Part shown: positions 3,043-30,666 of the stretch, in pieces | How positions within the stretch are numbered: position 1 is the first letter of the stretch | Layout of the letters: every line of letters starts with the position of its first letter | NCBI RefSeq assembly: GCF_016026235.1 | Contig: NZ_CP065613.1 | DNA: 64,000 nucleotides | Origin: Escherichia coli | GTDB lineage: Bacteria; Pseudomonadota; Gammaproteobacteria; Enterobacterales; Enterobacteriaceae | Strand: one strand, 5' to 3' | Notes under the pieces: generated by a model | Database searches by the model: none | Told to the model about the DNA's origin: nothing | What the model saw: only the letters and a program-made list of their open reading frames with translations | Translations under genes and position numbers: made by a program

Positions 3043-3046
3043 ATTC

Positions 3047-6519: not shown

Positions 6520-6528
6520 AAGATGTCC

Positions 6529-7302
6529 TTATCGGAGTAATTTATTGAGCTGATGCAGAATATCCTGTGTCTGGCTGTCCAGACGCAGCAGATAAAACAG
6601 ATAAAATACGGCCAGCACAACAAGACCTCCGCACATTACATGCCTGATGGTCAGCCGCCGGATTAACTGATAACGCCCACCCTGTATGTTGTTCTTCTGG
6701 TGAAGCAGCGGAAATGGCGCATCGCCGCGCAGTTTGTGCAGGGCATGGTGCAGGCGCTGGTAGATCCGCTCAAATTCATCCTGTTGCTGAATGGCAACCT
6801 TGTAGCGCCCGCGAAAGCCGAGCGAAAAACAAAGGTATAAAAATTCCAGCAGATCCTGGTAACGTATCGGCTCCCGGATAAGGCGTTCGAGCAGGATAAA
6901 CACTTTCTCGCCGCCCCAGGCTTCGTTATGAAAATGAACCAGCAGCGACTGTTTGATCCATTCGTTTTTGTTGGACCAGCCGTTGCCCAGCGCCGCTTCG
7001 TCAATAAACGTGCAGAGAATGTAGCGGAACGAAACAATGACGCCCGGTTCGTATCCCTGTTCCTGGAGTAGTTGTTCTACGGCCTGGACATCGGTTACCA
7101 CCTGGGCAAACAGATGTTCTGGCATGGCCTGGCTGTTCATGGTGGACAGACGCATCACCATGCCGAGCAACGGCGTGGCGGCGTCAATCATTGGGTTCAG
7201 GCTGTTGCCGCGAAGGGCGAGACGGTACTGACGTCCTGATGTTCCGCTCTCCGGCTCCATGGGAAAAACCGACGGTTCACCCATATCGCTGATATCGCTC
7301 AT
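6529..7302 (-). CDS. tssL: TssL (DotU-like) T6SS membrane protein
   Basis: 257 aa with C-terminal TM helix (GGLVVLAVFYLFYLL); position between tssK and clpV. Confidence 0.7.
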   Translation of the reverse strand: MSDISDMGEPSVFPMEPESGTSGRQYRLALRGNSLNPMIDAATPLLGMVMRLSTMNSQAMPEHLFAQVVTDVQAVEQLLQEQGYEPGVIVSFRYILCTFIDEAALGNGWSNKNEWIKQSLLVHFHNEAWGGEKVFILLERLIREPIRYQDLLEFLYLCFSLGFRGRYKVAIQQQDEFERIYQRLHHALHKLRGDAPFPLLHQKNNIQGGRYQLIRRLTIRHVMCGGLVVLAVFYLFYLLRLDSQTQDILHQLNKLLR

Positions 7303-7306
7303 TCAC

Positions 7307-8653
7307 TTATCCCCTTATCGCCCAGAGCTGAAGGTTCAGATCGGGGAAGGTGCCGGAGATATGCAGCGCCAGCGCGCCCGCTTTTATCACGTCCTGCCAG
7401 GCTGGGGTGCCTTTTTCCAGTTCGAAGTAAACATAACCTTCATGCCAGGGCAACTGACGCGGCGCAGCGGTAAGCGTGTGCAGCGGAATACCCGGCACCT
7501 GCACGCTGACCACGCTGCGGATTTTGTCGGTAGCGGCCACTTTCGACTGCTGGATGAACTGGCGTTGTACCTGGTCGTAGGGCATCCTGGCGCGCACTGC
7601 CAGTACCAGCTTGCAGGACTGCAACAGTGTGGGATCGTTGATGGTGGCGATCCAGGTCCCCTCTGAAAAGAACAGCGGCAGATTCTGCGCACGCGGCACC
7701 AGTACGGTATTGAGCGCGCGCCGCAGTTCCGGGATCACGGTTCTGGTGAAGGTCGCGGTAAGATCCCTGTGATTATATGGCTCCACGGTGCAGGGCAGGC
7801 GATTACCTTCGGTAAAGGTCATCAGTTCTCCCAGCAGCCCCACCAGATTCCGGTAGAAGGCTTCCGGATGCAGCGTGTGCAGTTGGGAACGATGCGTGAA
7901 CTGCATTTGATGGCGGTTAAGCATCTGCAACATCATAAATTCGGCTACATCGGCGATCCCGCTCTGTTCAGGCGAACCAATGCGCCCGGCCAGGTCAGCG
8001 GCGCGGGTGGCAAGTAGTCCCTGCACCTCGCCGGAGAATGCCCCGAGCAACCCGCTGACACGGACGGCCTGAATGGTGGGAATAAAGGTGTTGTCCAGCA
8101 CCAGCGCGCCGGTGGCATTTTTATTGAGGATACGGCACAGGGGGAGAGTCACCATCGCGCTGAGATCATCTGCGCCGCTGACTATCCTGGGGATCAACTG
8201 TCCCAGACCGACTGGCTGTTCGTCGCCTTCGTCAGTGTGAAAATCACGGACGCGGGTATGGGTGAGGCGGTAACGCTCCGTACCCTGACCGGCGCTGTGC
8301 AACCCCTGGATTTCATTGATCACGTCGCTTATCACCGGCAGCGCCAGATAAATACTGTGGCTCTCTTTCGATGAAAGGGTTCCCGGCTGGAAAGGTTCCG
8401 GCAGCAGATCCTGGTCGGGAATACTGAATACGGTGCCGTCAGGCATGCAGCCCGCCGCACGGTCAATCATAATTTTGCCCTGAGCAAGCAGTTCGGTATT
8501 GATGGAGAGTTCCGTAAAGCCCCAGAAAAAATCACCCAGTGCATCCAGACGACGGGTCAGCAGGTACTCGCAGTGACGCTGCTGTTGCTGAAAATGCTGC
8601 GGCAGGGCAAACAGCCCTTCCTGCCAGATCACCTTGTTTTTCATTGTTGCCAT
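7307..8653 (-). CDS. tssK: TssK baseplate protein
   Basis: 448 aa; N-terminus MATMKNKVIWQEGLFALPQHFQQ typical of TssK; gene order. Confidence 0.8.
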   Translation of the reverse strand: MATMKNKVIWQEGLFALPQHFQQQQRHCEYLLTRRLDALGDFFWGFTELSINTELLAQGKIMIDRAAGCMPDGTVFSIPDQDLLPEPFQPGTLSSKESHSIYLALPVISDVINEIQGLHSAGQGTERYRLTHTRVRDFHTDEGDEQPVGLGQLIPRIVSGADDLSAMVTLPLCRILNKNATGALVLDNTFIPTIQAVRVSGLLGAFSGEVQGLLATRAADLAGRIGSPEQSGIADVAEFMMLQMLNRHQMQFTHRSQLHTLHPEAFYRNLVGLLGELMTFTEGNRLPCTVEPYNHRDLTATFTRTVIPELRRALNTVLVPRAQNLPLFFSEGTWIATINDPTLLQSCKLVLAVRARMPYDQVQRQFIQQSKVAATDKIRSVVSVQVPGIPLHTLTAAPRQLPWHEGYVYFELEKGTPAWQDVIKAGALALHISGTFPDLNLQLWAIRG

Positions 8654-10473: not shown

Positions 10474-11523
10474 TTATTCCCTGATTCGGATGGTGATGGC
10501 GGGCGGTACTTTCGGCTGACCAATAAAGCTGGTTCTACCGAGGCGGGAGCTGGCCGGATCGCCAAGGCGCATCCCTTTAGCCTGCTGTGGTGCCAGGCAC
10601 AGCCGTAAATCCCAAGCAAACTGGTCGCGCAGAATAAAGGAAAGGAACATGGTCAGAGGCAGGTGATTTTCGCCATCGGGTAAAAATGAGAGATAACGCT
10701 CCCGCGACAGGTTGCCAATCTGCAACAGAAATTTTCCGCTGCGATCCGGCACCCGTGCGCCGAGGGTAAAATTAACGCCAAGTATGGAGCGTCCCGGAAT
10801 ATGTCCAGCCGTTTTTCCTTTCGGATTACGTACACCAAGCCGGTTCTGGTGTGCCGGATCAATGGCGACTTTACGCAGTTGCCAGCGTTCAATGGTGACA
10901 TCCGGCAAATCAAAACAGTGCGACACCAGATTACAGATAACCTCCGGCGCGCGGCCTGGTGTTGCCAGAATTCCGGCGTAAGCCAGCATTTTGCTGTGGT
11001 TAATGGCAAGCCTGTCGCGCACGCTCTGATTACCCAGCCCGACCAGCGCGTACATGCGCTGTGAAAAGGTGTCAGTGCCGCCATTACGAAAGCAGATGTA
11101 GTAGCGGTATTTGCGCCAGGCATGATAGGCAAACTGTGTCCAGCGGTGGCTGAACAGATCGAGAAATTCTTTAAGGCCGTCTTCGTTCTGTGCGGACTCC
11201 TGCGCCATCTGATCCAGATAATAGCCCGGTAGCGGCGACTGGCTGCCGGAAAAACCAAGGAACCGGGTTTGCAGTACATACTGTCCGTTCTGGCTACGGG
11301 AAAGCGCACTCAGGTCCGTACCCGGAAAACCGATACTGGCGTCAGAGCTGAAACGCACGATCTCCCGGGCAGGCTCGGTACGCAGGGAAATATCCTGGCC
11401 CGGAGCGCCATACCGACGGTACAGCGCCTCCATCAGCACATAGAAATTGCAGTTGCGCACATCCGCCGATAACGGCGGTTTTACCGCTATATAAGGGCGT
11501 GCTGACCCATTTTCTCCTGCCAT
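10474..11523 (-). CDS. tssG: TssG baseplate protein
   Basis: 349 aa; follows tssF in conserved tssE-tssF-tssG order. Confidence 0.7.
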   Translation of the reverse strand: MAGENGSARPYIAVKPPLSADVRNCNFYVLMEALYRRYGAPGQDISLRTEPAREIVRFSSDASIGFPGTDLSALSRSQNGQYVLQTRFLGFSGSQSPLPGYYLDQMAQESAQNEDGLKEFLDLFSHRWTQFAYHAWRKYRYYICFRNGGTDTFSQRMYALVGLGNQSVRDRLAINHSKMLAYAGILATPGRAPEVICNLVSHCFDLPDVTIERWQLRKVAIDPAHQNRLGVRNPKGKTAGHIPGRSILGVNFTLGARVPDRSGKFLLQIGNLSRERYLSFLPDGENHLPLTMFLSFILRDQFAWDLRLCLAPQQAKGMRLGDPASSRLGRTSFIGQPKVPPAITIRIRE

Positions 11524-13347
11524 TCCCAGGCCTCCTGACTTTCCGTGTTGATAATTTTCAGACAGTGGTACGAATTGATGCTGGCGTAGAGAGCAAAAAA
11601 GTGCGAGAGCACTGTACCAAGAAGATAAATTTCACCTTCGCAGATAAATGGATCGGGACGTATCCACAGCGTGGTCGCCAGCCCGCGAACCGGCACGCCT
11701 TTAAACAACCTGTCAACAGGTTTGGTTTCGAGTTTTTCTATGGCATCCAGTTTCTGGCGCGACAGTCTGGCCCGCTGCGGATGGTGAGCGCCTGGCAGGT
11801 CGAAGGTCCGCAGGATCTGGATCAGTGTCTCCCTGTCCAGCAGGGAGAGGTAGTTCAGGTTCATCGCGGAAATCAGCGACCAGTGCATGTCAGCCGTCCG
11901 TGACTGGCCAGAGCGGCTGCGTTGGGCGTGTGACATTATGAAATGAGGCCACCGCCGGGTTTTTGTTGACGGCCACGCAGATATCGCCGATATGCAGCCG
12001 AGCAGGGATCATACGGTTGGTACAGATTAATGACGTGGTGATCACATCATCATTAAACCGTGAGCTGTCCGGAATGCTGCCGTCCGCATGGACAAAGGCG
12101 ATACTATGTTCAAGCCCGCGGTGAAACAGGGATGTTTTAGTCCGGTGATGCCAGTAGACGACTTCCCGCTGGCGGCTGTACTCCATCTGGTGCTGGAAAC
12201 TTTCAAATTCGGGCCAGACACGCGCCTGGCTGCCAGGGTTGGATTCAGTACCTGAAACTTTGACTTTGCTGGTGACTGTGCTTATCTGAAAAATGTCATA
12301 AGCGTCGGGATGCCGGTGGCTGGCGCGCAGCGGGTATTCCGCTATCCGTCCATCAGGCCTGACGGGTTCCGCATAATGCGTAAACAGGTTAATGGCTGGC
12401 GTACAGTGCAGACGCAGTGAGTCCTGGCGTAGCTTGATGTCGGCAGGTAACGGGCGGTTAAAGTGCAGGCGCAGCGTAAACGCGCTGACCGAGAAATCGT
12501 CCGGTAGTGGCGCAACATCGCGCAGATGGAAAAAAAAGAAGGCTTCGGGATAGCAGAAATACTCCTGGAGTACCCGATAGCCGCTGTGGACATTTTTCGG
12601 CCACGGTAGCAGGGCGTCCTGGTTTTCAAATCCGGCGGCCTCCAGCCACAGATCCGGCAGCGGCAGGCGGTACTCTCCGGCAATCAGTTCCGCATCCATC
12701 AGGCATTCGCAAAACCACAGATAAAGCTGGTGTCGGGTATAATCGTCTTCATTACCCAGCCAGAACGTTATTTTGTTCAGGTCAAGCATGGCGGGGGAGA
12801 CATTGTTATCTGCGGTAAAACTGATATCTATGATGCCTTCTTTCAGGCTGCTGGCGTTGCGGGTGTCGAGAATGCGCAGTGGTTGCAGCCAGATATCGCG
12901 CGCCAGCGTGAAATGACAGGCTACGGAAGAAACGATTTTATCATGATTGTCAGACAGCACCTTCTGAGCAGCCAGGGCGGACTTTTCTGAGCGGCTTCTG
13001 ATCAGTTCATTACGGCAGACTTGAACAGGGACTTTTAACTGATCGGTTTTGGGTTCATAGGCAATAACCGTCATGGCCGGAACTGGGCGTAAATAGTTTG
13101 CCCACAGCATACGGATTAGCCCATGGGTGAATTCGGGGAATTCGTCCTCAAGTTTCTGACGCAGGCTACCGGACATAAAGGCAAAGGCTTCCATCAGGCG
13201 CTCCACGTCCGGATCACCCTCTTTCTCGGCCAGAAAGTGGGCCAGATGTGGTTTTTCCTGCGCCAGCAGTTTGCCAAGCTGGCGAAGATAATCCAGCTCT
13301 TCGCGGTAGTAACGTTCTTCAAAAGCCACAGAGATCACTCCACACAA
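11487..13347 (-). CDS. tssF: TssF baseplate protein, apparently frameshifted (two overlapping ORFs 11890..13347 and 11487..11936)
   Basis: The 485 aa and 149 aa ORFs together give about 620 aa, the normal TssF size; the C-terminal piece carries the conserved TssF C-terminus (NLNYLSLLDRETL...). Frames differ by one nucleotide within 11890-11950. Confidence 0.6.
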
Positions 13348-16476: not shown

Positions 16477-16995
16477 ATGCCAACCCCATGTTACATTTCA
16501 ATTACAGGTCAGACCCAGGGGAACATCACTGCCGGTGCTTTCACCGCAGATTCTGTCGGCAATATCTACGTGCAGGGACACGAAGATGAAATGCTGGTGC
16601 AGGAGTTTCTGCATAACGTTACTGTTCCAACCGATCCACAGTCTGGTCAACCTTCCGGGCAGCGCGCGCACAAACCGTTCATTTTCACCGTGGCGCTGAA
16701 CAAAGCCGTTCCGCTGCTGTACAACGCGCTGGCCTCCGGTGAAATGCTGCCGAAAGTGGAGCTGCACTGGTGGCGTACTTCAGTTGAAGGCAAGCAGGAG
16801 CACTACTTCACCACACGTCTTACTGACGCGACGATTGTGGACATGAACCTGCACATGCCGCACTGCCAGGACCCTGCACAGCGTGAGTTTACGCAATTGC
16901 TCGCAGTATCACTGGCATACCGTAAGGTTGAGTGGGAGCACATCAAATCCGGTACTTCTGGTGCCGATGACTGGCGTGCACCGCTGGAAGCATAA
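16477..16995 (+). CDS. hcp: Hcp (TssD) T6SS tube protein
   Basis: 172 aa; MPTPCYISITGQTQGNITAGAFTADSVGNIYVQGHEDEMLVQEF typical Hcp. Confidence 0.9.
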   Translation: MPTPCYISITGQTQGNITAGAFTADSVGNIYVQGHEDEMLVQEFLHNVTVPTDPQSGQPSGQRAHKPFIFTVALNKAVPLLYNALASGEMLPKVELHWWRTSVEGKQEHYFTTRLTDATIVDMNLHMPHCQDPAQREFTQLLAVSLAYRKVEWEHIKSGTSGADDWRAPLEA

Positions 16996-17215: not shown

Positions 17216-19615
17216 ATGTCCTTAAAAGGTCTGCGCTTTACGCTGGAGGCTGACGGCCAGGAGCCGGACACCTTTGCAGTGGTGAATTTCAGGTTAATCC
17301 AGAACCAGTCTTATCCGTTTGTGATGAGTGTGGATGTTGCCAGCGACTCTTTTATGCAGACGGCGGAGATGCTGCTGGAGAAGAAGGCGACGCTGACCAT
17401 CTGGCAGGGCGTCATCCCGCTGCGTTATGTTACCGGCGTGGTGGCGGGCTTTGGCATGCAGGAGAACAATGGCTGGCAGATGCGTTACCACCTGCGTATT
17501 GAGCCGCCGTTATGGCGGTGCGGGCTGCGGCAGAATTTCCGTATCTTCCAGCAGCAGGATATCCGGACGATATCGGCCACGTTACTGAACGAGAACGGCG
17601 TCACGGAGTGGACGCCGCTGTTTTATGAGGACCATCCGGCGCGGGAGTTCTGTGTGCAGTACGGGGAGTCGGACCTGGCGTTTCTGTCCCGGCTGTGGGC
17701 GGAGGAGGGAATTTTCTTCTTTGAGCGGTTTGCGGCGGACAGTCCGGAGCAGAAGCTGACGCTGTGCGACGATGTGGCGGGGCTGTCACAGGCGGGAGAG
17801 CTTCCGTTTAACCCGGACACATCGGCAGGAGCGGAGACAGAGTGTGTCAGTATGTTCCGTTATGAGGCGTATGTCCGCCCGTCGTCGGTGCAGAGCCAGG
17901 ATTACACGTTTAAGGTGCCGGACTGGCCGGGGATGTATGAGCAGCAGGGTGAGAACCTGAACGGACAGCTGGCGCAGTACGAGATATTTGATTATCCGGG
18001 AAGGTTCAAGGATGAGCAGCACGGCAAGGATTTCACGCTGTACCAGATGGAGAGCCTGCGCAGTGATGCGGAAAAGGCCACAGGGCAGAGTAATTCGCCG
18101 AGGCTGTGGCCGGGAACGCGGTTTACGCTGACGGGGCATCCGCAGAAGATGCTGAACCGTGAATGGCAGGTGGTACAGAGCATTCTGTCAGGAAACCAGC
18201 CGCAGGCGCTGCACGGCAGCCAGGGAAAGGGAACCACACTGGGAAATCAGTTAGAGGTGATACCGGCGGACCGGACGTGGCGTCCACGGCTGCAAAGCAA
18301 ACCGAAGGTGGACGGGCCACAGAGCGCCATTGTCACCGGGCCTGCGGGAGAGGAAATCTTCTGCGATGAACATGGCCGGGTACGGGTGAAGTTCCACTGG
18401 GACCGTTATCACGGGATGACGGAGGCGAGTTCATGCTGGGTGCGGGTATCGCAGGCGTGGGCGGGGCCGGGGTTTGGTAACCTGGCGATACCGCGGGTGG
18501 GCCAGGAGGTGATTGTTGATTTTCTGAACGGAGACCCGGACCAGCCGCTGGTCATGGGCCGGACGCACCATGAGGACAACCGTTCGCCGGGCGACCTGCC
18601 GGGAACGAAGACGCAGATGACCATCCGGTCGAAGACCTATAAAGGAAGCGGATTTAACGAACTGCGCTTCGAGGACGCCACCAGTAATGAGCAGGTGTAT
18701 ATCCATGCGCAGAAGAACATGGATACGGAGGTGCTCAACGACCGGACAACGGATGTGAAACATGACCATACGGAAACCATCGGTAACGACCAGAAGATAA
18801 CGGTGGTGAAGGGTCAGACGGTTCAGGTCGGTACAAAAAAAGAGGGGGGCCACGACCAGAGTATCACGGTGGCGAACGACCGGCGTATCACGGTACGTAA
18901 TGACCAGACTCTGAAGGTGACGAATGACCGGACGGTGAGCGTGAGTCACGATGACGGTCTGTACGTCAGAAACGACCGTAAAGTGACGGTGGAAGGGAAG
19001 CAGGAGCATAAGACGACGGGGAACCATATCAGTCTGGTGGAGGGGAAACACAGCCTGGTGGTGAAGGGGGACCTGGCGGAGAAGGTGAGTGGCGCGCTGG
19101 GGATAAAAGTGGACGGGGATATCGTGCTGGAGAGCAGCAGCCGGATAAGCCTGAAGGTGGGTGGCTCGTTTATCGTCATTCAGCCGGGCGGAGTGGATAT
19201 TGCCGGGCCGAAGATAAACCTGAACGGTGGGGGCAGTGCGGGGACACCGGTGGGGACGATGCAGCCGGCGGTGCTGGAGGCTCCGGAGGATGAGAGCAGT
19301 GATGATGGCAGTGATGACTCCGGAGAGGATAGTGGCAATCCCGCAGGGAGTGACGGAGGAGGTGATGGCGGTGACGATGAAGATGATCCTGAAAAATATA
19401 CCCTCCAGTTCCATTTTACGGACGATGACGGGATACCGTATTCAGAGACGCAGTATATTGCCTTTTTTGAGGATGGCACACAGACGCGTGGTGAAACAGA
19501 CAGAGAGGGATATACAGAAATATTTTATACAGATACAGCACAGGAAATTAAAGTCCAATTGTTATTTTCGGATGCTTTTTATATTGAGCCGGAGGGGCAT
19601 TATGGCAGGGAATAA
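17216..19615 (+). CDS. vgrG: VgrG (TssI) spike protein with acidic C-terminal extension
   Basis: 799 aa; gp27/gp5-like body, repeated RNDxT/V-type beta-helix motifs, C-terminal acidic linker (DDGSDDSGED...GGDDEDD) plus about 70 aa tail. Confidence 0.9.
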   Translation: MSLKGLRFTLEADGQEPDTFAVVNFRLIQNQSYPFVMSVDVASDSFMQTAEMLLEKKATLTIWQGVIPLRYVTGVVAGFGMQENNGWQMRYHLRIEPPLWRCGLRQNFRIFQQQDIRTISATLLNENGVTEWTPLFYEDHPAREFCVQYGESDLAFLSRLWAEEGIFFFERFAADSPEQKLTLCDDVAGLSQAGELPFNPDTSAGAETECVSMFRYEAYVRPSSVQSQDYTFKVPDWPGMYEQQGENLNGQLAQYEIFDYPGRFKDEQHGKDFTLYQMESLRSDAEKATGQSNSPRLWPGTRFTLTGHPQKMLNREWQVVQSILSGNQPQALHGSQGKGTTLGNQLEVIPADRTWRPRLQSKPKVDGPQSAIVTGPAGEEIFCDEHGRVRVKFHWDRYHGMTEASSCWVRVSQAWAGPGFGNLAIPRVGQEVIVDFLNGDPDQPLVMGRTHHEDNRSPGDLPGTKTQMTIRSKTYKGSGFNELRFEDATSNEQVYIHAQKNMDTEVLNDRTTDVKHDHTETIGNDQKITVVKGQTVQVGTKKEGGHDQSITVANDRRITVRNDQTLKVTNDRTVSVSHDDGLYVRNDRKVTVEGKQEHKTTGNHISLVEGKHSLVVKGDLAEKVSGALGIKVDGDIVLESSSRISLKVGGSFIVIQPGGVDIAGPKINLNGGGSAGTPVGTMQPAVLEAPEDESSDDGSDDSGEDSGNPAGSDGGGDGGDDEDDPEKYTLQFHFTDDDGIPYSETQYIAFFEDGTQTRGETDREGYTEIFYTDTAQEIKVQLLFSDAFYIEPEGHYGRE

Positions 19616-20405
19616 TAATACTAGTGGGACTTCACAACCCGAGTCGCAAGTATGTGTAGTACCGCAAAAAATTACAAATAAATTTAAAATAATGATGAGT
19701 AAGGCTTGTAAAGCACAGAAAATGGTTTTATTGAAAAGAGCAGATGATATTATGTCATGGGAGGGGGAACAACAACGAGATTTTATTAAAGTTTTTGGCC
19801 TTAAAGGCGAGGACATTATAAAAATCAGAAAGGTTGGGGAAGATACTGGGAAACGAATGCAAGCGAGACTATTCATAATGGATGGCATCAGACGAATAAT
19901 GACGATTGCAAATGGTTTGACGATCGAAAGCTATAAAGATTATACGAACTGCAATGAATTTGCTGCTTTTATTAGTCCACATCTTGATCCTCCTTACATT
20001 GTAAATATCGGAGCGCATTTTGAATACAGACATGGTATAAAACAGTCGGTTACAGGTAGAGACTCTCATGTAAGTACACTTTGCCATGAAATGTCCCATA
20101 TATTTTGGTATTGGGGTGACAATCAAAAAGGTGGTATGTGGACTCAGGATTATACGGGTATTAATAAGTTCGCAACAAGTAATAAGGATGAAGTTAGCTA
20201 TGAGAAACATGTTTCAGTGGCTAATGATCTGGTTACATTGCGTAAAGATCAGTTATTTGAGAATGCATATAATGTTGAAAGATATTTTTATATAAAATTA
20301 AATGATGAAGATATTGAAGCTCAAGATGAGAATATGTTAGCAAAAAAAGTAGAGGATAAAATAAAAGAGATAGAAAAATGTTTTGATGAGTTGATGGGGA
20401 AATAA
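19602..20405 (+). CDS. Putative VgrG-associated effector, zincin-like metallopeptidase candidate (HExxH)
   Basis: ATG at 19602 overlaps vgrG stop by 14 nt (track ORF 19227..20405 begins inside vgrG). AT-rich; motif STLCHEMSHIFWYWGD...WTQDYTG (HExxH plus a downstream Asp). Confidence 0.45.
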   Translation: MAGNNNTSGTSQPESQVCVVPQKITNKFKIMMSKACKAQKMVLLKRADDIMSWEGEQQRDFIKVFGLKGEDIIKIRKVGEDTGKRMQARLFIMDGIRRIMTIANGLTIESYKDYTNCNEFAAFISPHLDPPYIVNIGAHFEYRHGIKQSVTGRDSHVSTLCHEMSHIFWYWGDNQKGGMWTQDYTGINKFATSNKDEVSYEKHVSVANDLVTLRKDQLFENAYNVERYFYIKLNDEDIEAQDENMLAKKVEDKIKEIEKCFDELMGK

Positions 20406-20468
20406 GATGAAGAGGTTGGCTTTCTATAATCTAAATTATGTTGTACTGATGGTTTTTTTCTTTGTTTT

Positions 20469-21155
20469 TTGCCATTATCTATTGCAATTGCAATAGATAA
20501 TGAGAATCTTTTTGTAAAAAAATACAGATTCGGTTTTGAACGAAGAAGTGACAATGGGAAACCAATTATTTATCTTAGCCATAATTTAGCGCCAGAGGAA
20601 AATATAAGTAATGAATTAACAAATGATGTTGTTGTTAAATTGGTGGTTAAGCCACATGCTGAAAATATTTTAGCTACTATAACTTTTTATAACAGTAGTA
20701 CTAAATCGTATTTTCTCCCCAGAATATATTATCCAAAGAACTTCCAAAAAGGAAATGGAGATGTATTTGATGCTTTGTGTGATGACGAATTCTTGATTAC
20801 ATCAGGAAATATTAGCTTAGACTATCTAGGAGGCTTTTGTCCCTTTGAGCTTGATTTGAATTTGAGCCGATGGGTGGAAATTACGGCAGGTAAAAAAATA
20901 TCTTTTGATGTAAAATTGAATGATATGCATTCATTTCTCCCCAGTTTAAATAATTATCATATAAAAACATTAAACTACAAACTTGTTAGGAGAAAATGGT
21001 TTGTATTAAAATCAATTAATGAAACATTCCTCTCTATTTTGATGAAAAGATACTCATGTAATGAATATGATTTTAGAGCTATATCATTTAGTGGAGAGGG
21101 ATGTGATAATTATGAATTTGATAAAAATACGTTTTTTTTGTTAATCAAATATTAG
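20469..21155 (+). CDS. Hypothetical protein, immunity candidate for the upstream effector
   Basis: AT-rich 228 aa ORF directly downstream; begins with TTG in the track; a 29-codon ATG-initiated hydrophobic peptide (20407..20496) lies in another frame just upstream across a T-run. Confidence 0.3.
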   Translation: MPLSIAIAIDNENLFVKKYRFGFERRSDNGKPIIYLSHNLAPEENISNELTNDVVVKLVVKPHAENILATITFYNSSTKSYFLPRIYYPKNFQKGNGDVFDALCDDEFLITSGNISLDYLGGFCPFELDLNLSRWVEITAGKKISFDVKLNDMHSFLPSLNNYHIKTLNYKLVRRKWFVLKSINETFLSILMKRYSCNEYDFRAISFSGEGCDNYEFDKNTFFLLIKY

Positions 21156-21394
21156 ATAAAGATGATGAGCAACATTCTGTTCATATTAGGTCTAATGAAT
21201 TTTCCATCAATATCGATGGAAGCTTGGTAAAGCAACCTTATTGATTAAAATGTATCGCAGGTTTTATTTTCTGTAATGCTGGTGCATGTGCGTAAATATT
21301 TCTTAAGAGCCGGAAACACCTCTTCCGCCTTTATCGACGATAAACCTACCGCCAGAACCGGTGATGCCATTGACTGCGGTGGCGTGGTTAAAGG

Positions 21395-21732
21395 TGGCGG
21401 GCGATGTGGTGCTGGAGAGCAGCAGCCGGATAAGCCTGAAGGTGGGCGGTTCGTTTGTGGTCATCCATTCAGGGGGCGTGGACATCGTCGGGCCGAAAAT
21501 CAATCTCAATAGCGGCGGTAGTCCGGGAACGCCGGTGCCGACGCTGCAACCGGCGGTTCTGAAAGCGCTGGCAGATGATAAAAGTTTAGCGGCTGAGCAA
21601 AATGATAGTAATGCATCGTCCGATCAGAATGATAACAACGATGAGGGTGAGGAAGCGCCAGAAAAATCGGTGTGTAAGGAGTGCCTGAAAAGGGCGCAAG
21701 AAGCCGCCGCCGTTTTTGCGCCTCGTGGATAA
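21395..21732 (+). pseudogene. vgrG 3-prime fragment (orphan VgrG C-terminal region)
   Basis: 21395-21560 is near-identical at DNA and protein level to vgrG 19103-19270 (GDVVLESSSRISLKVGGSFVVI...GPKINLN); upstream sequence is unrelated to vgrG; distinct C-terminal tail. Confidence 0.7.
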
Positions 21733-21738
21733 GGGAGA

Positions 21739-22509
21739 ATGACAATGATAACAGTATCGCCACACGCTACCGATCAAGACAAATATATTATCTGGCTGAA
21801 GCAAGCTGAATCATTCTGTTCTGCCGCTGGTTTGGATTACATAGATGTGCTTGTTGACCAGGCTGGAACCGACCAACCTTTGCAAAATGATATGCTTCAT
21901 CTGTGGCCAGCCATTCACTGGTATGCCCTGTTTGAAGGAACGCCTGAAGCTGAGACGATGGAGTATTCCCCTGTAGTGTTACGCCTGTACTTTGCGCTCA
22001 GTAGCCATCGCAAATTTCTGGCACAACTGATGGCGTCATTTGCTGATACGCCGCGTCTTACTTTGTTGATATCCCCTCTTACATTCGACCTGCTGGGGCG
22101 GCATCTTCAGGTATTGTCACAGGTTCAGTGGGAAGAACAGACCGGATTGCTGCGTTACTATGATAATCGGGTGTTCCCTTTACTGTTCACACATGTTTTG
22201 ACTAACGAGCAGCAGGCGACATTTACTGATATTGCGTTGTTCTGGAGCTGGTTAGACCGTGATGGTGAGATTAACTGGAAATCAGGAAGTTTTTCACCAG
22301 AACGCAGGCTTACTGACAACCCGGAGATGAATCGGGTGGATGATGTACAGGTGGGATTGATGGGCTGTATCTGCGACGCTGAAGTCCTGATGAAGGAGAA
22401 AGCAGTCAGTGAACTCAGTCAGGAAAGCTATTTTGCCCACTGTCTTGATATTGCTTTCAGAGCCAATGACGCGAAATATTTCGGAGCTTTGCGGGACTTC
22501 GAAGGATAA
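21739..22509 (+). CDS. DUF4123-like T6SS effector adaptor (Tap/Tec-type)
   Basis: 256 aa immediately after the vgrG fragment (RBS AAGGGAG); size and position typical of DUF4123 adaptors. Confidence 0.6.
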   Translation: MTMITVSPHATDQDKYIIWLKQAESFCSAAGLDYIDVLVDQAGTDQPLQNDMLHLWPAIHWYALFEGTPEAETMEYSPVVLRLYFALSSHRKFLAQLMASFADTPRLTLLISPLTFDLLGRHLQVLSQVQWEEQTGLLRYYDNRVFPLLFTHVLTNEQQATFTDIALFWSWLDRDGEINWKSGSFSPERRLTDNPEMNRVDDVQVGLMGCICDAEVLMKEKAVSELSQESYFAHCLDIAFRANDAKYFGALRDFEG

Positions 22510-22822
22510 TATTGTGGTGATGTACGGGGAGATTTATCTGTTTAAAAGTCCGTAGCTGTTAATATCAAGAGATAATCGTGAAATAAACGGAAAATCAAGC
22601 TCGACATGTAATGGTAGTATCCATCATGTTGCATTTGTGTTCGATCGTAATGTCAGTTCACTTGGCTGCAATATATTTTGCGTAATATCATCAATGCTCT
22701 GTCGATATTCCAATGTGTGACAATCGAAAGATATGCATTTTATTTGCTTCTTTGTCAAAACTTTATTGTCGTAGAAACAATACCCATCAATTAAAATCTC
22801 TCAAAGTAAAAGAACCAGCAAC

Positions 22823-23377
22823 ATGTCCAGCAAAATAAGGAAAAGTATCAGTATGAGAGCGATTTTCAAATGTTATTCTCTAATGATTTTATTTGCAGTA
22901 TCAGGCTGTTCAATGGCAAAAAATAGCGGTGATTACACTGCTGTGGATATTAATGGGATAAATCATACGGATAAGGATATAAATTATATACACATCAATG
23001 GTTACGGCGGACCAAATATTGGCCCATTCGGAGACGGTGGAAGATATTGTTGCGTTATGCTGCCAGATAAGTGGCATTCTGGATTAAAAGCCCGAGTTGA
23101 GTGGGAGGTTGATCCAAATACAGCTCCTCTGCCTCCAGGCTATAAGGACAGGGAGAAATTTGAAGCATGGAAGAAAGTTGCGCTAAACAGTTTTAGAAAA
23201 TATTCAACAATTGTTGATATCCCGGAATATGATGCTGAGCTTTGTGGCCTGACCGTTCATTTTCTAACGTGTAATCAGATAAAAGTGACAACCGTCTGCC
23301 AGAAATATGGTACACCAAATTATCCTATCAAAGAACCCCGCGAGATGAAGGAACCAGCAACATGTCCAGCAAAATAA
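22823..23377 (+). CDS. DUF3304-like lipoprotein, Tli1-type immunity candidate (copy a)
   Basis: 184 aa, signal peptide with lipobox VSGC; paralogous to the next gene; Cys-rich (RYCCVMLPDKWHSGLKARVEWEVDPN). Confidence 0.5.
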   Translation: MSSKIRKSISMRAIFKCYSLMILFAVSGCSMAKNSGDYTAVDINGINHTDKDINYIHINGYGGPNIGPFGDGGRYCCVMLPDKWHSGLKARVEWEVDPNTAPLPPGYKDREKFEAWKKVALNSFRKYSTIVDIPEYDAELCGLTVHFLTCNQIKVTTVCQKYGTPNYPIKEPREMKEPATCPAK

Positions 23378-23904
23378 GAAATGGAATGAATATAACAAAA
23401 GTAGTTAAAGGCTGTCTGGTATTAATTTTGATGGTGATTTCGGGTTGCTCAGCAGCTAATTACGACGATTATACTGCAGGTGATCTCCGGGCAATAAATC
23501 ATATTAAAGGTATCAGTATTAATTGGTTCACCGTAAATGGTTATCGGGTCCATGGTTTGGGCGGTGGATATTGCTGCATAATGTTACCAGAGAAGTGGCA
23601 TTCTGGATTAAAAGCCCGGATCGAGTGGGAAGTAGACCCGAACCCCCTTGAACCTATTGCAATGAAAAAAGAAGGTTTTGGCTATGAAGAAGATGCTTAT
23701 GCTAAACATGCTGCAAATTATCAAAAATATAAAGTAATTGTTGATATCCCGGAATACGGCGCTGAACGTTGTGGCCTGACCGTTCATTTTCTGCCGTGTA
23801 ATCAGATTAAAGTGACAACCGTCTGCGAGGGCTATGGCACACCGAATTATCCTATCAAAGAACCCCGCGAGATGAAGGAACCTGCAACATGTCCAGCAAA
23901 ATAA
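23362..23904 (+). CDS. DUF3304-like lipoprotein, Tli1-type immunity candidate (copy b)
   Basis: 180 aa paralog of 22823..23377; the 3-prime approx 130 bp are about 90 percent identical between the copies. Confidence 0.5.
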   Translation: MSSKIRNGMNITKVVKGCLVLILMVISGCSAANYDDYTAGDLRAINHIKGISINWFTVNGYRVHGLGGGYCCIMLPEKWHSGLKARIEWEVDPNPLEPIAMKKEGFGYEEDAYAKHAANYQKYKVIVDIPEYGAERCGLTVHFLPCNQIKVTTVCEGYGTPNYPIKEPREMKEPATCPAK

Positions 23905-25982
23905 GTGGTCTGGCTTTTCCGTGTTATGCCCCCCCGGTGTTCCCTGAAGATGGGCGATTAATATTATCTGAAGTGCAGGTAAACGCGAACTACCTAAAAC
24001 AAATCAATAAAACAGAGGAGCACAAAACCAACTGTAGTAAACAGGCTGGATTTAGAATTGGCTTTACGTGTAATCAAAGTCTGCATATTAGTCTGTTTTT
24101 TGATGGTACAAATAATAATGAATATAATGACACAAAAGTCTCTCATCCAACCAATATTGCGAAATTATTCCACACAAGTATCGAAGACCGTAATGCTGGG
24201 TATTTTTCCTATTACATACCTGGTGTAGGCACACCATTTCCCAAGATAGGTGAAATGGATTACAGCAACAGCGGACTGGAATTTGCCACCGGTGGTGAAG
24301 ACAGGATTAATTGGGCATTATTACGCCTCGTGGATGCTCTTAGCTATGCTATTGACCCTACCCAAAATGGGCTGAATGAGAAGGTGGCAAAAGAGCACAT
24401 TCCTGTCATGCGAGCTCACTGGCCGATGACTGGTGAAGTGAATCGTCGCAATGTGATTAACCCCTACCTGGAAAAATTACAGGGGCAGTTAGAACAAGCC
24501 AGTCCGCGCCTGCTAAACGTAAAGCTATTTATCTACGGATTTTCCCGTGGCGCAGCGGAAGCGCGAACCTTTGTTAACTGGTTGACTCAGTTAGCTTGCC
24601 CGCAGAGGCAACAGGTGATGCTGGCCGGTTTAGCTGTCAGTATTGAGTTTTTGGGGCTGCTGGATACCGTAGCTTCTGTGGGGGCGGCGCATGTTTTGCC
24701 GGGCGCTGCCGGTCATATGGGATGGGCCGATAGTACTCAGCAACTCCCTGATGAGCGGCACTTTCCCGGCCTGATTAAATGCTGTCGTCACTTCGTTGCC
24801 GCGCATGAGCAGCGGCTGTGCTTCCCGCTGGATTCAATCCGTCGTCCTGAAGGCAATTATCCTTTATATGCAGAGGAAGTGATCTATCCGGGGATGCACT
24901 CTGATGTCGGTGGTGGCTATCCCGTTTGCGATCAGGGGAAGTCCTGTGGAGGTCCAGATGAAATTCTCTCTCAAATTGCTCTGCATGATATGTATCTTGC
25001 GGCGTTTGATGAGGGCTCTCCATTATCAGTGCATCCTTTATTCATAACCAAAATGATAAAAGATATTTCACCATCAAGAGCTATGTCTGATTCATCAATT
25101 GCTGAATTTGTCATCGCTCCAATGTTGATTAAACGCTTCAACATCTGGCGTCAAGCGCTGCTGAACACCACCTTGCAGGGTACAGAAGAAATGATTGATA
25201 CGAGGGAAGGTTATCACTCCTATCAACTTGCCCAGGTTCTTGAAAGCGCAATTAGCGATCAGATCGGCTGGATCACCGCCTGGCGTATCGGTCGCTATGC
25301 GAATAACAGCCTTCTTGTGCAACCTTTTTATATTAAGGCGCCACAGCTGGATAAAGATGGACTTGATAAAGAGGCTAAAGCGCGTAAAGAACAAATGGAA
25401 AATATTGAAAAAGAACAGGCGAACAAGCAGAAAGGGAATGGCACACTTGATGAAAGTAATCAGGGCATTCCTATCCTTGACCCAACCAATGCTCAGTATC
25501 AGTTGCGAGAGGCAGCCCGAGAATTTCAGAGCGATTATAAAGGATGGACGCGCGATATTAACGGCAGCGTCATGGAGAAAGCCATTCAGATTCTTGTGGA
25601 TGTCATTCCTAAATATCCGGTGTATCTGATTAATGGCGATGATGAAGCAAAAGAATATCAGCAAATTAAGGCTATGGGAGACGGACTCTATCCACAATTT
25701 TTTATTGATTCACTGGGAACGGGAACGCGTACTCAGCCATGCGCTGAATTACTGGCTCTCTATGATGACCAGGTTCACGACTCCCGCGCCTGGTTTATGC
25801 AAAGTTCGCTGGGTGGACGCGAACCCTGGGGCGGTTATTTTCGCTACCGCATGATTTACTTCGGTGATGAGGCTAATAAAGAGCTGAAGCTAATCTCTGC
25901 AGATGGCAAAGTTGTTGGCGATCAGCCCACATCCAACCGGGTCATTTATTGGATGGAATCGAAAACGGTGAGCCGAGGTTAA
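23889..25982 (+). CDS. Tle1-like phospholipase effector (DUF2235 alpha/beta hydrolase)
   Basis: 697 aa; DUF2235 hallmark HISLFFDGTNNN and nucleophile elbow GFSRG; follows adaptor and lipoprotein genes. Confidence 0.7.
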   Translation: MSSKISGLAFPCYAPPVFPEDGRLILSEVQVNANYLKQINKTEEHKTNCSKQAGFRIGFTCNQSLHISLFFDGTNNNEYNDTKVSHPTNIAKLFHTSIEDRNAGYFSYYIPGVGTPFPKIGEMDYSNSGLEFATGGEDRINWALLRLVDALSYAIDPTQNGLNEKVAKEHIPVMRAHWPMTGEVNRRNVINPYLEKLQGQLEQASPRLLNVKLFIYGFSRGAAEARTFVNWLTQLACPQRQQVMLAGLAVSIEFLGLLDTVASVGAAHVLPGAAGHMGWADSTQQLPDERHFPGLIKCCRHFVAAHEQRLCFPLDSIRRPEGNYPLYAEEVIYPGMHSDVGGGYPVCDQGKSCGGPDEILSQIALHDMYLAAFDEGSPLSVHPLFITKMIKDISPSRAMSDSSIAEFVIAPMLIKRFNIWRQALLNTTLQGTEEMIDTREGYHSYQLAQVLESAISDQIGWITAWRIGRYANNSLLVQPFYIKAPQLDKDGLDKEAKARKEQMENIEKEQANKQKGNGTLDESNQGIPILDPTNAQYQLREAAREFQSDYKGWTRDINGSVMEKAIQILVDVIPKYPVYLINGDDEAKEYQQIKAMGDGLYPQFFIDSLGTGTRTQPCAELLALYDDQVHDSRAWFMQSSLGGREPWGGYFRYRMIYFGDEANKELKLISADGKVVGDQPTSNRVIYWMESKTVSRG

Positions 25983-26039: not shown

Positions 26040-26100
26040 CCCCAGTTCAAACCCATCCGCATCCCGCCATGCCGGAAACTTCACACTGTACTCCCAGGGA
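26040..26100 (-). pseudogene. Diverged duplicate of the yafV 3-prime end
   Basis: 26053-26092 matches 29895-29928 (catccgcatccYgccatgccggaaactt); reverse translation reads ...KFPAWRDADGFELG*, like the yafV C-terminus ...[14 protein letters not shown]. Confidence 0.45.
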
Positions 26101-26238
26101 AAAATCACGTAATGCTGCTTTTTTTGTACTAAATAATTCGCATTTTATGTTCAATAATTGAGGTGTTCCTTATTACCTAAAGCTGTTTTTCATTGCTTAT
26201 ACATGATCAAATACTCATTGCATAATTAAGGGGGCAAA

Positions 26239-27055
26239 ATGGAACTTAAAAAATTGATGGAACATATTTCTATTATCCCCGATTACAGGCAAGCCTGGAA
26301 AGTGGAACATAAATTGCAGATATTCTATCTGTTAACTATTTGCGCCGTTATTTCTGGTGCATAATGCTGGGAAGATATAGAGGATTTGGGGAAACACAAC
26401 CCGATTTTTTGAAGTGATATGGTGATTTTGAAAATGGTATTCCTGTTCACGATATCATTGCCAGAGTTGTATCCTGTATCAGTCCTGAAAAATTTCATGA
26501 GTGCTTTATTAACTGGATGCGTGACTGTCATTCTTCAGATGATAAAGACGTCATTACAATTGATGGAAAAACGCTCCGGCACTCTTATGATAAAAGTCGT
26601 CACAAGGGAGCAATTTATGTCATTAAAATCCGTCTTCATATTGTTTGCATGTCTCTGATGAATTTATTGATTTTACGTTTGAATGGAAAGGGCTGAAGAA
26701 ATTATGCATGGCAGTCTCATTTCGCTCAATAATAGCAGAACAAAAGAAAAATCCCGAAATGACGGTCAGATATTATAGCATTTCTGCTGATTTAACCGCA
26801 GAGAAGTTCGCCACAGCGAACCGAAATCACTGGCAAGTGGAGAATAAATTGCACTGGCATCTGGACGTGGTAATGAATAAAGACGACTTTATAATAAGAA
26901 GATGAAATGCAACAGAATTATTTTCAGGGATACGGAACATCGCTATTAATATTTCAAAGAAAGATAAGATACTCAAGGCCGGGGCAAGATGTAAGATGTG
27001 AAAGCAGCTGCGGACAGAGACTACCTCGCGTCAGTCCTTTCGGGGGCGGGCTTTC
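26239..27055 (+). pseudogene. H-repeat associated protein (ISAs1-family transposase) pseudogene with internal deletion and frameshifts
   Basis: Starts [26 protein letters not shown]..., then stop/frame changes; contains [28 protein letters not shown] and C-terminal [23 protein letters not shown]...[20 protein letters not shown]; about 320 bp of the middle are missing relative to the full-length family. Confidence 0.7.
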
Positions 27056-28005: not shown

Positions 28006-29297
28006 TGAGGGATCCCCAGAAAATTTAGTAAACCATTATCATATTGGTATACCGTTGCTGTAGAACTTTCAGCCCTGCGTCAAGTGACAGTGTGTTTAGT
28101 ATGAGTGGAGAATGTCGAATCACATTCTCCGCCAGTTTTAATAACGAGATGACTCGCCTGTGCTTCACTGTATTTGCCTGATATTTATGATGTATCCCTT
28201 TGTTTTCCAGGCTGAAACCGCTTAACCACATAATGATACTGGCTAATGTTGCGATCAGACTCAATACCGTGACCCGCCCGGATGAATGACTGGCACCAAA
28301 CCGTAGTCCAAATCCCCAGCGAGGATTTTTTTCATCCCTGAAATTTTGCTCAATTTGCATTCTACGGCTGTATAATTTCATTACCTGTTTTGGCGAGAAC
28401 TCAGTACTGTTTGTGAAAATAAACCATGGTGATTTCCCGGCAGTACGAGCTTTAGCCGTCACCGATGGTCTGGTTGCTCTTTCCTTCGAGCGTTTAAATC
28501 TACGACCTTTAGGCTTACTTTTATAAAGATAAAAATGCCCTTCATGTTGTGCATTTTTATCTCGACCCAGCAGGCCTTCACCTAAATAAATTGCTGTCGT
28601 TGATGCTTTTGTGCCTGAGTCCGACACCTTTTCCCAGCCATTACCAACATTGTAATAATGATTGCCCAGTACCCGGCAAATATAGGTCCAGCCACGGGAG
28701 CGGAGCTGTTGGAACCATCGCCCCTGAAAACCGGCATCTGTAATAACAATGACATCAGTCCCGGGGGAAAAGCACTCAGCAAGCGATTCCAGAAAACGCT
28801 CATGTACATCTGCATTCGCTGTCTGTGATGATGGAACGACACAACTCATCAACGGTAAAGAACGCCCGTCACATGCCAGGCTTGCCCGCAAAAGCTGAAA
28901 ACGAGAGGCATGATAAGCACTCCAGTCAATGAGTATCACAACACGAGACATTCCCCGCGTAATCTTTTGGGTAATTCGCTGAAAAATGGTGGAAACCTCA
29001 TTTTGCAAATGTCGATTCCCCAACAGTCGATCCACCCGCTTTATTTTGTTTTTAACTGATGCCGTACCGGTTAAATGACGCCCGATACTGGTAAGTGTGA
29101 GGGAAGCGCCATTTATTACAGCATTAGTTGCGTCAATCAGTGATTTTTGACGGTAAAGATGCAAAGGGGCCAGTATATTGTTAAGGAAATTTTGGCATAA
29201 TGAACGTGCAGGCATAGTGGTGATCTCCTTGAAATTGTTAGCACAATCAATTAGATCACATCTCACTATGCCTGTCTTGTTTTCTGGGGATTCCTCA
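28006..29297 (-). mobile_element. IS4-family-like insertion sequence, copy 1 (intact), approx 1292 bp
   Basis: Terminal inverted repeats TGAGGGATCCCCAGAAAA / TGAGGAATCCCCAGAAAA; 11-bp direct repeat GGGGTATTTCC at 27994-28004 and 29298-29308; single transposase ORF. Confidence 0.8.
28025..29215 (-). CDS. IS transposase (intact)
   Basis: Track ORF 28025..29266; start placed at ATG 29215 (MPARSLCQNFLNN...) with RBS AAGGAG, matching the start in copy 2. Confidence 0.8.
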   Translation of the reverse strand: MPARSLCQNFLNNILAPLHLYRQKSLIDATNAVINGASLTLTSIGRHLTGTASVKNKIKRVDRLLGNRHLQNEVSTIFQRITQKITRGMSRVVILIDWSAYHASRFQLLRASLACDGRSLPLMSCVVPSSQTANADVHERFLESLAECFSPGTDVIVITDAGFQGRWFQQLRSRGWTYICRVLGNHYYNVGNGWEKVSDSGTKASTTAIYLGEGLLGRDKNAQHEGHFYLYKSKPKGRRFKRSKERATRPSVTAKARTAGKSPWFIFTNSTEFSPKQVMKLYSRRMQIEQNFRDEKNPRWGFGLRFGASHSSGRVTVLSLIATLASIIMWLSGFSLENKGIHHKYQANTVKHRRVISLLKLAENVIRHSPLILNTLSLDAGLKVLQQRYTNMIMVY

Positions 29298-29886: not shown

Positions 29887-30666
29887 TCACCACAACCTAA
29901 ACTCATCCGCATCCTGCCATGCCGGAAACTTTTCTCTATATTCCCGCAATGCCATCATCGACAGCTCCGCATCAATGCGCGTTGCCTGATGCGCGTCGGC
30001 AGTAGCGATAATCTCGCCTTGTGGATTAATCACCCGGCTGTCACCGCGATAATGGCAGCCGTTGCCATCGCTGCCGACGCGATTGCATCCCGCCACATAC
30101 GCCTGATTCTCAATCGCGCGGGCCGTCAGCAATGCCTGCCAGTGCAGAGAGCGCGGAGCAGGCCAGTTGGCAACGTAGATGGCGAGGTCATAATCGTTGA
30201 GATTGCGCGACCACACCGGAAAACGTAAGTCGTAGCACACCAACGGCAAAATACGCCAGCCGCGCCATTCCACAATCACTCGCGCATTGCCCGCTTTATA
30301 ATGTAGATGCTCATCTGCCATGCGGAACAGATGACGCTTATCATAAAAATGTACCGTGCCGCCCGGCTCAACCAGCAAAAAGCGGTTAACCGAACCAGAC
30401 TCCGTTTGTAATGCAACACTGCCTGCAATCAGCGCATTGCACTGCTGCGCCTTAGCTGTCATCCAGTTCACTACGTCATCTTGTGCTAGCGACGAAGCTG
30501 CCGCTTCCATGGCAAAGCCGCTGGTAAACATCTCCGGTAGAACGATCACATCGCGCCCGGTAATACCTTCCAGTTGACGATCAAAATGACGCAGGTTGGC
30601 AGGGCCATCCATCCACACCAGTGGTTGCTGCAAAAGCGTAATCTTCAAACCAGGCACGGTGTACAA
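29887..30666 (-). CDS. yafV: YafV-like carbon-nitrogen hydrolase (omega-amidase)
   Basis: 259 aa nitrilase-superfamily protein; true start may be a GTG three codons downstream ([11 protein letters not shown]...). Confidence 0.85.

Follow-up and report, generated by a model that had tools for sequence, protein, structure and literature searches.

The 64,000-nt stretch of Escherichia coli contig NZ_CP065613.1 analyzed here (the window, to which all coordinates refer) carries a set of genes for the phospholipase effector Tle1 of type VI secretion system 1 (T6SS-1), comprising an adaptor gene, two immunity genes and the toxin gene, directly behind a vgrG gene of which only the 3' end is left. The locus is the variable end of the E. 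coli T6SS-1 island, adjoining yafV, and upstream of the headless vgrG stands a full-length vgrG with a different cargo, a candidate effector resembling the M35 metallopeptidases. We consider it likely that an M35 unit and a Tle1 unit were arranged in tandem and that an illegitimate deletion then beheaded the Tle1-type vgrG, stranding Tle1. In the simplest form of this history, a complete terminal unit would have consisted of a vgrG with a short Tle1-type tail, tla1, one to three tli1a genes and tle1, and the unit upstream would have held an HExxH effector gene and its immunity gene behind a vgrG with a C-terminal extension of its own. A deletion at a microhomology would have removed ~1.9 kb from the 5' end of the second vgrG together with most of its PAAR gene, and the residue would be the PAAR 3' remnant that is now joined, out of frame, to the last ~113 vgrG codons.

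The vgrG fragment (21386-21732, plus strand) was identified by similarity and lies within an open reading frame (ORF), 21361-21732, that matches solely the last ~113 residues of VgrG (~630-743); the gp27/gp5 part is absent and there are in-frame stop codons upstream of the ORF. From KVGGSFVVIHSGG through the C-terminal FAPRG the fragment hardly differs from the VgrG of strain NC101 (743 aa), whose gene is directly 5' of a DUF4123 gene that is followed by three DUF3304 genes and then tle1, and at 96.6% identity it also matches the 3' end of the full-length L1PEag1 vgrG. The ORF had no match in NCBIfam and does not have the gp27-like hub and gp5-like OB-fold/beta-helix by which a VgrG/TssI protein is recognized (TIGR03361). 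It is a pseudogene remnant and not a VgrG, and the corresponding stretch in every related genome is labeled by the Prokaryotic Genome Annotation Pipeline (PGAP) as a VgrG pseudogene "missing N-terminus". The full-length vgrG upstream (17216-19615, plus strand, 799 aa) scores 595 bits with TIGR03361, has Phage_GPD, Gp5 and OB domains and matches VgrG structures in the PDB; its product also has an acidic linker and a C-terminal extension specific to the M35 cassette. The arrangement is that of a displaced or orphan toxin module, with an intact carrier upstream followed by a 5'-truncated paralog that has a segment in common with it, a different tail and its own cognate genes. An initial annotation of this DNA had proposed a headless vgrG 3' end ahead of an adaptor, two lipoprotein genes and an effector, and we found all of these elements, with slight refinement of their coordinates.

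The segment common to the two vgrG genes is a direct repeat (19086-19300 vs. 21371-21585, 75% identity over 215 nt). Its BLAST core pairs copy R1 (19101-19293, plus strand), which codes for the end of the gp5-like helix in the full-length vgrG, with copy R2 (21386-21578), which opens the fragment, at 78% identity (150/193, E ~1e-40), and its longest exact block is 38 bp (19124-19161 = 21409-21446). The duplication of a vgrG segment suggested by the initial annotation is therefore real; the two copies are the conserved, homologous helix ends of a pair of vgrG paralogs rather than an insertion scar. We also considered a chimeric origin of the fragment, in which its 5' ~55 nt would derive from the M35-type vgrG, as these are closer to that type than to NC101; this was ruled out by the full-length Tle1-type vgrG of L1PEag1, which has the identical 5' sequence.

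The origin of the truncation can be read from its 5' edge. Residues encoded by 21325-21400 (plus strand) correspond to the last ~27-32 codons of a PAAR gene, the DNA matching PAAR gene 3' ends at 80-89% identity, and those of strains TUM17543, CFIAFB20120266, and PapRG-04-4 at 82-89% (the remnant translates as SSAFIDDKPTARTGDAIDCGGVVKGG vs. SSTVFIDGLPAARTGDAIDCGGVVIGG in PAAR). In the same three strains, and in GPT24-02, such a PAAR gene is located 18-20 nt 5' of a vgrG. A base-by-base comparison placed the limit of the PAAR homology at 21400 and the beginning of the vgrG homology at ~21389, with the two in discordant frames and overlapping in a GGTGG microhomology (~21391-21400). These homology limits, together with the overlap and the frame mismatch, lead us to conclude that the end of a PAAR gene was joined illegitimately to codon ~630 of the vgrG that followed it. 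The remnant is without the 5' two-thirds of its own gene.

Comparison with 5426 complete E. coli genomes placed the junction in context. The M35 cassette was found in 12 of them, all with an identical PAAR::vgrG junction. In the ten M35-bearing loci examined (23CRST027 and 33E were assumed to be like JX21CE8 and 32F4, based on identical match statistics), identity is 99.4% or higher across the stretch running from the repeat to the end of tla1 (19101-22509), and ranges from 91 to 100% in the vgrG core and from 92 to 100% in tle1; a near-invariant block in variable flanks points to a single origin, after which the flanks recombined. The arrangement in strains NC101 and L1PEag1 is hcp-vgrG-tla1-tli1a x3-tle1 without the M35 cassette, which bears out the earlier proposal that effector modules at this site are turned over between strains. 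Whole PAAR-vgrG-cargo units stacked one behind the other are the building plan of E. coli T6SS-1 islands. CFIAFB20120266, for instance, has several stacked units of which the last is PAAR-vgrG-tla1-tli1a x3-tle1, GPT24-02 and PapRG-04-4 have a PAAR gene and other cargo genes ahead of an M35-type vgrG, and the T6SS-1 of sequence type 131 (ST131) has three vgrG genes with effectors of their own behind each, a DUF4123/DUF2235 pair included (PMC10711316, in which Ma et al. 2018 is cited for "vgrG islands"). CFIAFB20120266 also has another headless vgrG ("missing N-terminus", locus positions 3000-3854) before a different DUF4123-cargo unit, and this independent case indicates that decapitated vgrG units are not unique to the M35/Tle1 haplotype.

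The genes behind the fragment form a Tle1 module. The adaptor gene tla1 (21739-22509, plus strand; DUF4123) lies between the vgrG fragment and the immunity genes, starts 7 nt past the stop codon of the fragment with a GGGAG Shine-Dalgarno sequence upstream, and encodes a product that scores 218.3 bits with NF053803 (cutoff 200). The two DUF3304 outer-membrane lipoprotein immunity genes, tli1a copy 1 (22823-23377) and copy 2 (23362-23904, both plus strand), score 207.7 and 201.8 bits with NF053804 (cutoff 110) and their products have the lipoboxes VSGC and ISGC, respectively, with serine at position +2; copy 2 has a 16-nt overlap with copy 1 on one side and with tle1 on the other, and is 99.6% conserved across strains. 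The toxin gene tle1 (23889-25982, plus strand) is intact and encodes a 697-aa DUF2235 phospholipase that matches the Tle1-like catalytic domain PF09994 in two stretches (E=1.9e-13 and 9e-08), the Tle1-like C-terminal domain PF22137 (E=1.7e-57) and Pseudomonas aeruginosa Tle1 (PDB 4O5P; E=1.9e-116 over residues 11-677). Its motifs GFSRG (217), DTVASVG (259, with D259) and HSDVGGGY (337, with H337) are intact and align to identical motifs in 4O5P, giving the GxSxG nucleophile motif and the context of a Ser-Asp-His triad.

A 31-nt repeat, found by self-comparison (22809-22839, 23348-23378, and 23875-23905, plus strand), spans, at every tli1a-tli1a-tle1 junction, the stop codon of the preceding gene and the start (MSSKI) of the gene that follows, and is also located 5' of the first tli1a, and the first five codons are common to Tle1 and Tli1a. 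Related genomes have 0, 1, 2 or 3 copies of tli1a, a variation consistent with unequal crossing-over at these repeats. The order adaptor-immunity-immunity-effector was said in the initial annotation to differ from that expected for the family, but it is the canonical order for Tle1, as in P. aeruginosa PA3294-PA3290 (vgrG4a-tla1-tli1b-tli1a-tle1; PMC13133936) and in all E. coli Tle1 units that we examined; the effector-then-immunity order given there is that of the distantly related Tle1/Tli1 (DUF2931) system of enteroaggregative E. coli (EAEC). The tle1 allele of the window is common only to strain FDAARGOS_943 and is 91-94% identical to other alleles at the nucleotide level, with indels, a synonymous divergence (dS) of ~0.2-0.25 and a peak of divergence at residues ~351-450. 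That tle1 is this divergent while the adjacent tli1a copy 2 is 99.6% conserved suggests a mosaic replacement within tle1.

How Tle1 would be affected by the loss of the spike body depends on the way in which it is loaded. In P. aeruginosa, the last ~20 residues of VgrG4a lie in a groove between Tla1 and Tle1 and are required for recruiting both (PMC13133936). Tla1 and Tle1 of the window would thus normally be hooked on the last ~20 residues of their own VgrG, a tail that is now detached from its spike. DNA for the Tle1-type tail (21572-21760) occurs in 67 of the 5426 genomes, exactly once in each, and the 67 include the 12 M35 carriers, so that in M35-bearing genomes the sole copy is the headless fragment; the tail of the M35-type VgrG is unrelated to the Tle1-type tail beyond residue ~690. 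We infer from these sequence comparisons that Tla1 and Tle1 are without a spike to dock on and that Tle1 is stranded, probably not being delivered. The initial annotation was right in describing a displaced Tle1 module behind a headless vgrG, but not in separating the module from its cognate VgrG tail: the tail is directly upstream, and it is the spike body that is missing. Silence of the module, which it also entertained, or stranding would be in line with the data, short of proof.

Signs of erosion in related genomes point in the same direction. The reading frame of tle1 is maintained in the window by a C7 tract (23929-23935, codons 14-16), which is C6, with a frameshift at codon ~15, in at least six of the 12 M35-bearing genomes (32F4, 33F4, JX21CE8, ECNB21-M121, 23CRST031, and 2018-05-2CC); among the genomes with an intact vgrG, 52 of ~57 are in frame and 100% identical over the corresponding 91 nt. 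(STEC299, which has an intact vgrG, gave a 92- rather than 91-nt match, consistent with a 1-nt insertion somewhere in the stretch.) In PapRG-04-4 tla1 is broken, and FDAARGOS_943 has an insertion sequence (IS), IS600, between the fragment and tla1 and an IS1 in a tli1a gene. Collectively, the frameshifts and insertions are suggestive of erosion of the Tle1 module, with the toxin gene apparently drifting toward loss. We infer that the tli1a genes would still protect against Tle1 fired by neighbors, namely the ~1% of E. coli with an armed Tle1 unit.

Several observations weigh against the deletion history or against the stranding of Tle1. The PAAR remnant is cut at its 5' end as well, so that more than one illegitimate event is required, and no genome was found with the predicted ancestral arrangement, in which an intact PAAR-vgrG-Tle1 unit would stand behind an M35 unit. 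The uniqueness of the tail was assessed at the DNA level. The counts of C6 genomes are phylogenetically non-independent and concern a homopolymer, in which assembly errors are possible, and for this reason erosion is suggested rather than established; the C7 tract may be hypermutable or a site of recurrent assembly error. In the window itself tla1, both tli1a copies and tle1 are all intact and no terminator was predicted from vgrG to tle1, so that the module may still be expressed. (Promoter and terminator scans of the sequence gave 28 vs. 22.4±4.8 and 5 vs. 9.0±2.8 predictions, respectively, relative to shuffled controls; neither is above the controls and they are uninformative on expression.) Lastly, the dN/dS ratio of tle1 is 0.2-0.3, indicative of long-term purifying selection. 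We set this ratio aside as a sign of present function, as it reflects old divergence and is uninformative on recent relaxation.

With regard to the history of the junction, it is possible, if rather unlikely in our estimation, that the locus arose in a single step of homology-facilitated illegitimate recombination, in which incoming DNA carrying an M35-type vgrG, the M35 effector gene, its immunity gene and a partial PAAR gene would have been anchored by homology in the vgrG core and joined illegitimately at its other end within the Tle1-type vgrG already present, of which the first 1.9 kb would have been replaced. The illegitimate character of the junction and its short microhomology would be accounted for, as would the M35 block being one nearly invariant haplotype amid variable flanks, and the scheme corresponds to the published model for effector displacement in Vibrio cholerae (Kirchberger et al. 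2017, PMC5361080), in which one junction is illegitimate and the resulting arrays are then disseminated through homologous recombination of the flanking DNA. However, the 5' two-thirds of the PAAR gene are also gone, for which the one-step model needs an extra event or a donor that was already truncated, and since complete stacked units, including a PAAR-vgrG-Tle1 unit in last position, exist in E. coli, stacking followed by deletion is sufficient.

Other possibilities concern the present role of the module. Orphan C-terminal modules of Rhs and contact-dependent inhibition (CDI) systems were reportedly described by Jackson et al. in 2009 and Koskiniemi et al. in 2014 (both cited in PMC5361080), and for orphan Rhs toxins in Salmonella switching by recombination has reportedly been shown. 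The layout of those orphans is the same as here, with a full-length gene followed by a 5'-truncated copy that has a short homologous segment, an alternative C-terminus and cognate immunity; a difference is that in Rhs/CDI the toxin is the C-terminal tip itself, whereas here the tip is the docking tail for a separately encoded toxin. By analogy, reactivation by recombination may also be possible for vgrG. The Tle1 module would then be a reserve weapon, a role that we regard as unlikely: a RecA-mediated deletion between the two repeat copies would remove the M35 unit and fuse the working vgrG in frame to the Tle1-type tail, re-arming Tle1, and a subpopulation could in this way switch from protease to phospholipase attack. 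Such a fusion across the repeat would encode a 743-aa VgrG, the same size as that of NC101, and alleles of the L1PEag1 type might be the products of such deletions. The vgrG of L1PEag1 (locus positions 5116-7347) is M35-type up to the repeat and Tle1 (NC101)-type after it, the switch being inside the repeat segment, and in the vgrG of 2017-02-2CC (locus positions 3930-6161) the switch of type is ~150 nt upstream of the segment. That mosaic alleles differ in their switch points within the last third of the gene indicates frequent recombination inside vgrG in the E. coli population.

It is decidedly unlikely, in our view, that Tle1 still serves as an active weapon, with the M35-type VgrG, a different VgrG or PAAR protein of the genome, or some other route providing for its loading. 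The window does have intact ORFs and catalytic motifs, the genes from vgrG to tle1 are co-oriented and without a predicted terminator, and tle1 is also full-length in four of the 12 related genomes. Nevertheless, the dissimilarity of the M35-type tail beyond residue ~690 and the presence of the Tle1-type tail in single copy per genome speak against such loading, as does the finding in Agrobacterium that most of the non-native vgrG/tap pairings tested failed, with success in one pairing that left the subtypes of the two genes linked (PMC8546570). The frameshifts and IS insertions are moreover enriched in the headless context, and the tssF of the window is frameshifted as given (see below).

Entry of the M35 cassette by homologous recombination at the ~170-bp vgrG segment, with the duplicate as a crossover scar, as the initial annotation had proposed, is very improbable: although the segment is the best-conserved stretch common to both vgrG types, with its 38-bp exact block, the L1PEag1 and 2017-02-2CC alleles switch in or near it, and in Agrobacterium the tail and the genes behind it are known to be swapped by recombination within vgrG (PMC8546570), a crossover, whether reciprocal or by replacement, would have left one copy of the segment, not two, and the 5' edge of the second copy is the illegitimate junction to PAAR-derived DNA rather than M35-cassette DNA running into vgrG homology.

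The stacking-and-deletion history adds no new mechanism to what is known of these islands. The locus is a rare haplotype of a well-described system; its components, its gene order and the principle of displacement are already known, all components have curated family models and the pseudogene is flagged by PGAP in relatives. The closest parallel is the vgrG4a island of P. aeruginosa (PMC13133936), which likewise comprises a spike gene, a DUF4123 adaptor gene, two DUF3304 lipoprotein genes and tle1; Tle1 is a clear homolog, Tla1 and Tli1a pass NCBIfam models named after that system, and in P. aeruginosa and E. coli alike one copy of the duplicated immunity gene has often become a pseudogene. 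Unlike in P. aeruginosa, no more than the last 113 codons of the spike gene remain here and a further vgrG unit stands upstream, and binding of Tla1 and Tle1 to the E. coli tail is a prediction from sequence. The ST131 T6SS-1 (PMC10711316) has the same island type and chromosomal setting, with stacked vgrG-cargo units that include DUF4123/DUF2235; in contrast to that three-unit locus, the second vgrG is headless here and the M35 cassette is rare (12/5426).

Displacement in V. cholerae follows the same plan, in that a new module occupies the expressed position, older genes are pushed downstream and immunity genes are kept (PMC5361080). There, however, the displaced effector is usually lost and immunity alone is kept, whereas here the adaptor-immunity-effector set is kept and the spike body is lost. 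In the vgrG loci of Agrobacterium (Wu, Weisberg et al. 2021, PMC8546570), recombination within vgrG moves the tail together with downstream genes, as appears to occur in E. coli, and the specificity between vgrG tail, adaptor and effector limits the combinations that work, which the mosaic E. coli alleles fit; the outcome in Agrobacterium is replacement, as opposed to the retained headless copy seen here. The EAEC Sci-1 VgrG1-Tle1 complex (PDB 6SJL/6SK0) also represents a DUF2235 phospholipase carried by an E. coli T6SS-1 VgrG, but the EAEC Tle1 is a distant relative of that of the window (E=4e-07), binds the C-terminal domains of VgrG directly without a DUF4123 adaptor, and has a DUF2931 immunity protein encoded after the effector.

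As such, the locus is a clean natural example of weapon turnover in E. coli T6SS-1 islands. It indicates that deletion of the spike body alone can strand a complete adaptor-immunity-toxin set, and the comparative data suggest what follows, namely that the immunity genes are retained and the toxin gene is often frameshifted. This has a consequence for predictions of strain compatibility from genomes, as by gene content the locus would be scored "Tle1-positive" when it is probably just Tle1-immune.

Delivery also depends on the apparatus. The window is from an E. coli chromosome and its initial 25 kb, 98.5% identical to strain 32F4, hold the T6SS cluster (tssH, tssM, tssF, tssC, and others), which ends beside yafV. 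Among the genes compared, those between ~9467 and 16360, tssF (minus strand) has a 1-bp insertion at 11892 (within 11886-11899), outside a homopolymer, that divides it into ORFs 11890-13347 and 11487-11936, so that as sequenced not all core tss genes are intact. The insertion is present in none of the 549 E. coli genomes carrying that stretch; it is either a mutation private to the window that inactivates T6SS-1 or an error of sequencing. In FDAARGOS_943, tssC is interrupted by an IS21. If the tssF change and the poly-T changes described below are genuine, the T6SS-1 of this lineage is in decay as a whole, as has been described for other E. coli lineages (PMC10711316), and Tle1 delivery would be moot for this strain.

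The M35 cassette is foreign in composition as judged from its G+C content (32%, vs. 59% in the vgrG core), and matches in this regard the low-G+C vgrG islands with partial vgrG genes described in Pantoea and Erwinia (PMC3235180). Its low-G+C candidate effector gene (19602-20405, plus strand) encodes HEMSH at residue 162 of the product, which matched Aspzincin_M35 (PF14521) weakly (E=0.002), had no match in NCBIfam or the PDB, and is named an M35 family metalloendopeptidase by PGAP in strain 32F4. The candidate immunity gene that follows (20408-21246, plus strand) was delimited by alignment to 32F4, in which it is a 279-aa ORF with a hydrophobic N-terminus resembling a signal peptide or membrane anchor; NCBIfam searches gave no family match for the protein. 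In the window the gene is broken by two 1-bp poly-T deletions, at 20453-20459 (T7 vs. T8) and 21132-21139 (T8 vs. T9), the first of which splits the start codon and early hydrophobic N-terminus from the body of the protein and the second of which truncates the C-terminus. Both deletions are common to the window and its closest relative, FDAARGOS_943; across the 12 carriers the cassette is 1710-1714 nt in length and the poly-T tracts vary. The terminator scan also identified a perfect 30-nt palindrome (CATTATCTATTGCAATTGCAATAGATAATG) at 20473-20502, in the signal-peptide/anchor part of the gene.

On the other side of the full-length vgrG, hcp (TssD; 16477-16995, plus strand; TIGR03344, 209 bits) opens the hcp-vgrG operon side of the island. 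Between the T6SS island and yafV (29887-30666) there is an IS4-family transposase gene on the minus strand (28025-29266; NF033591, 360 bits), and related genomes have no IS4-family transposase gene at the corresponding position. Degenerate ISAs1 remnants follow tle1 (26049-26611), as they do in all related genomes.

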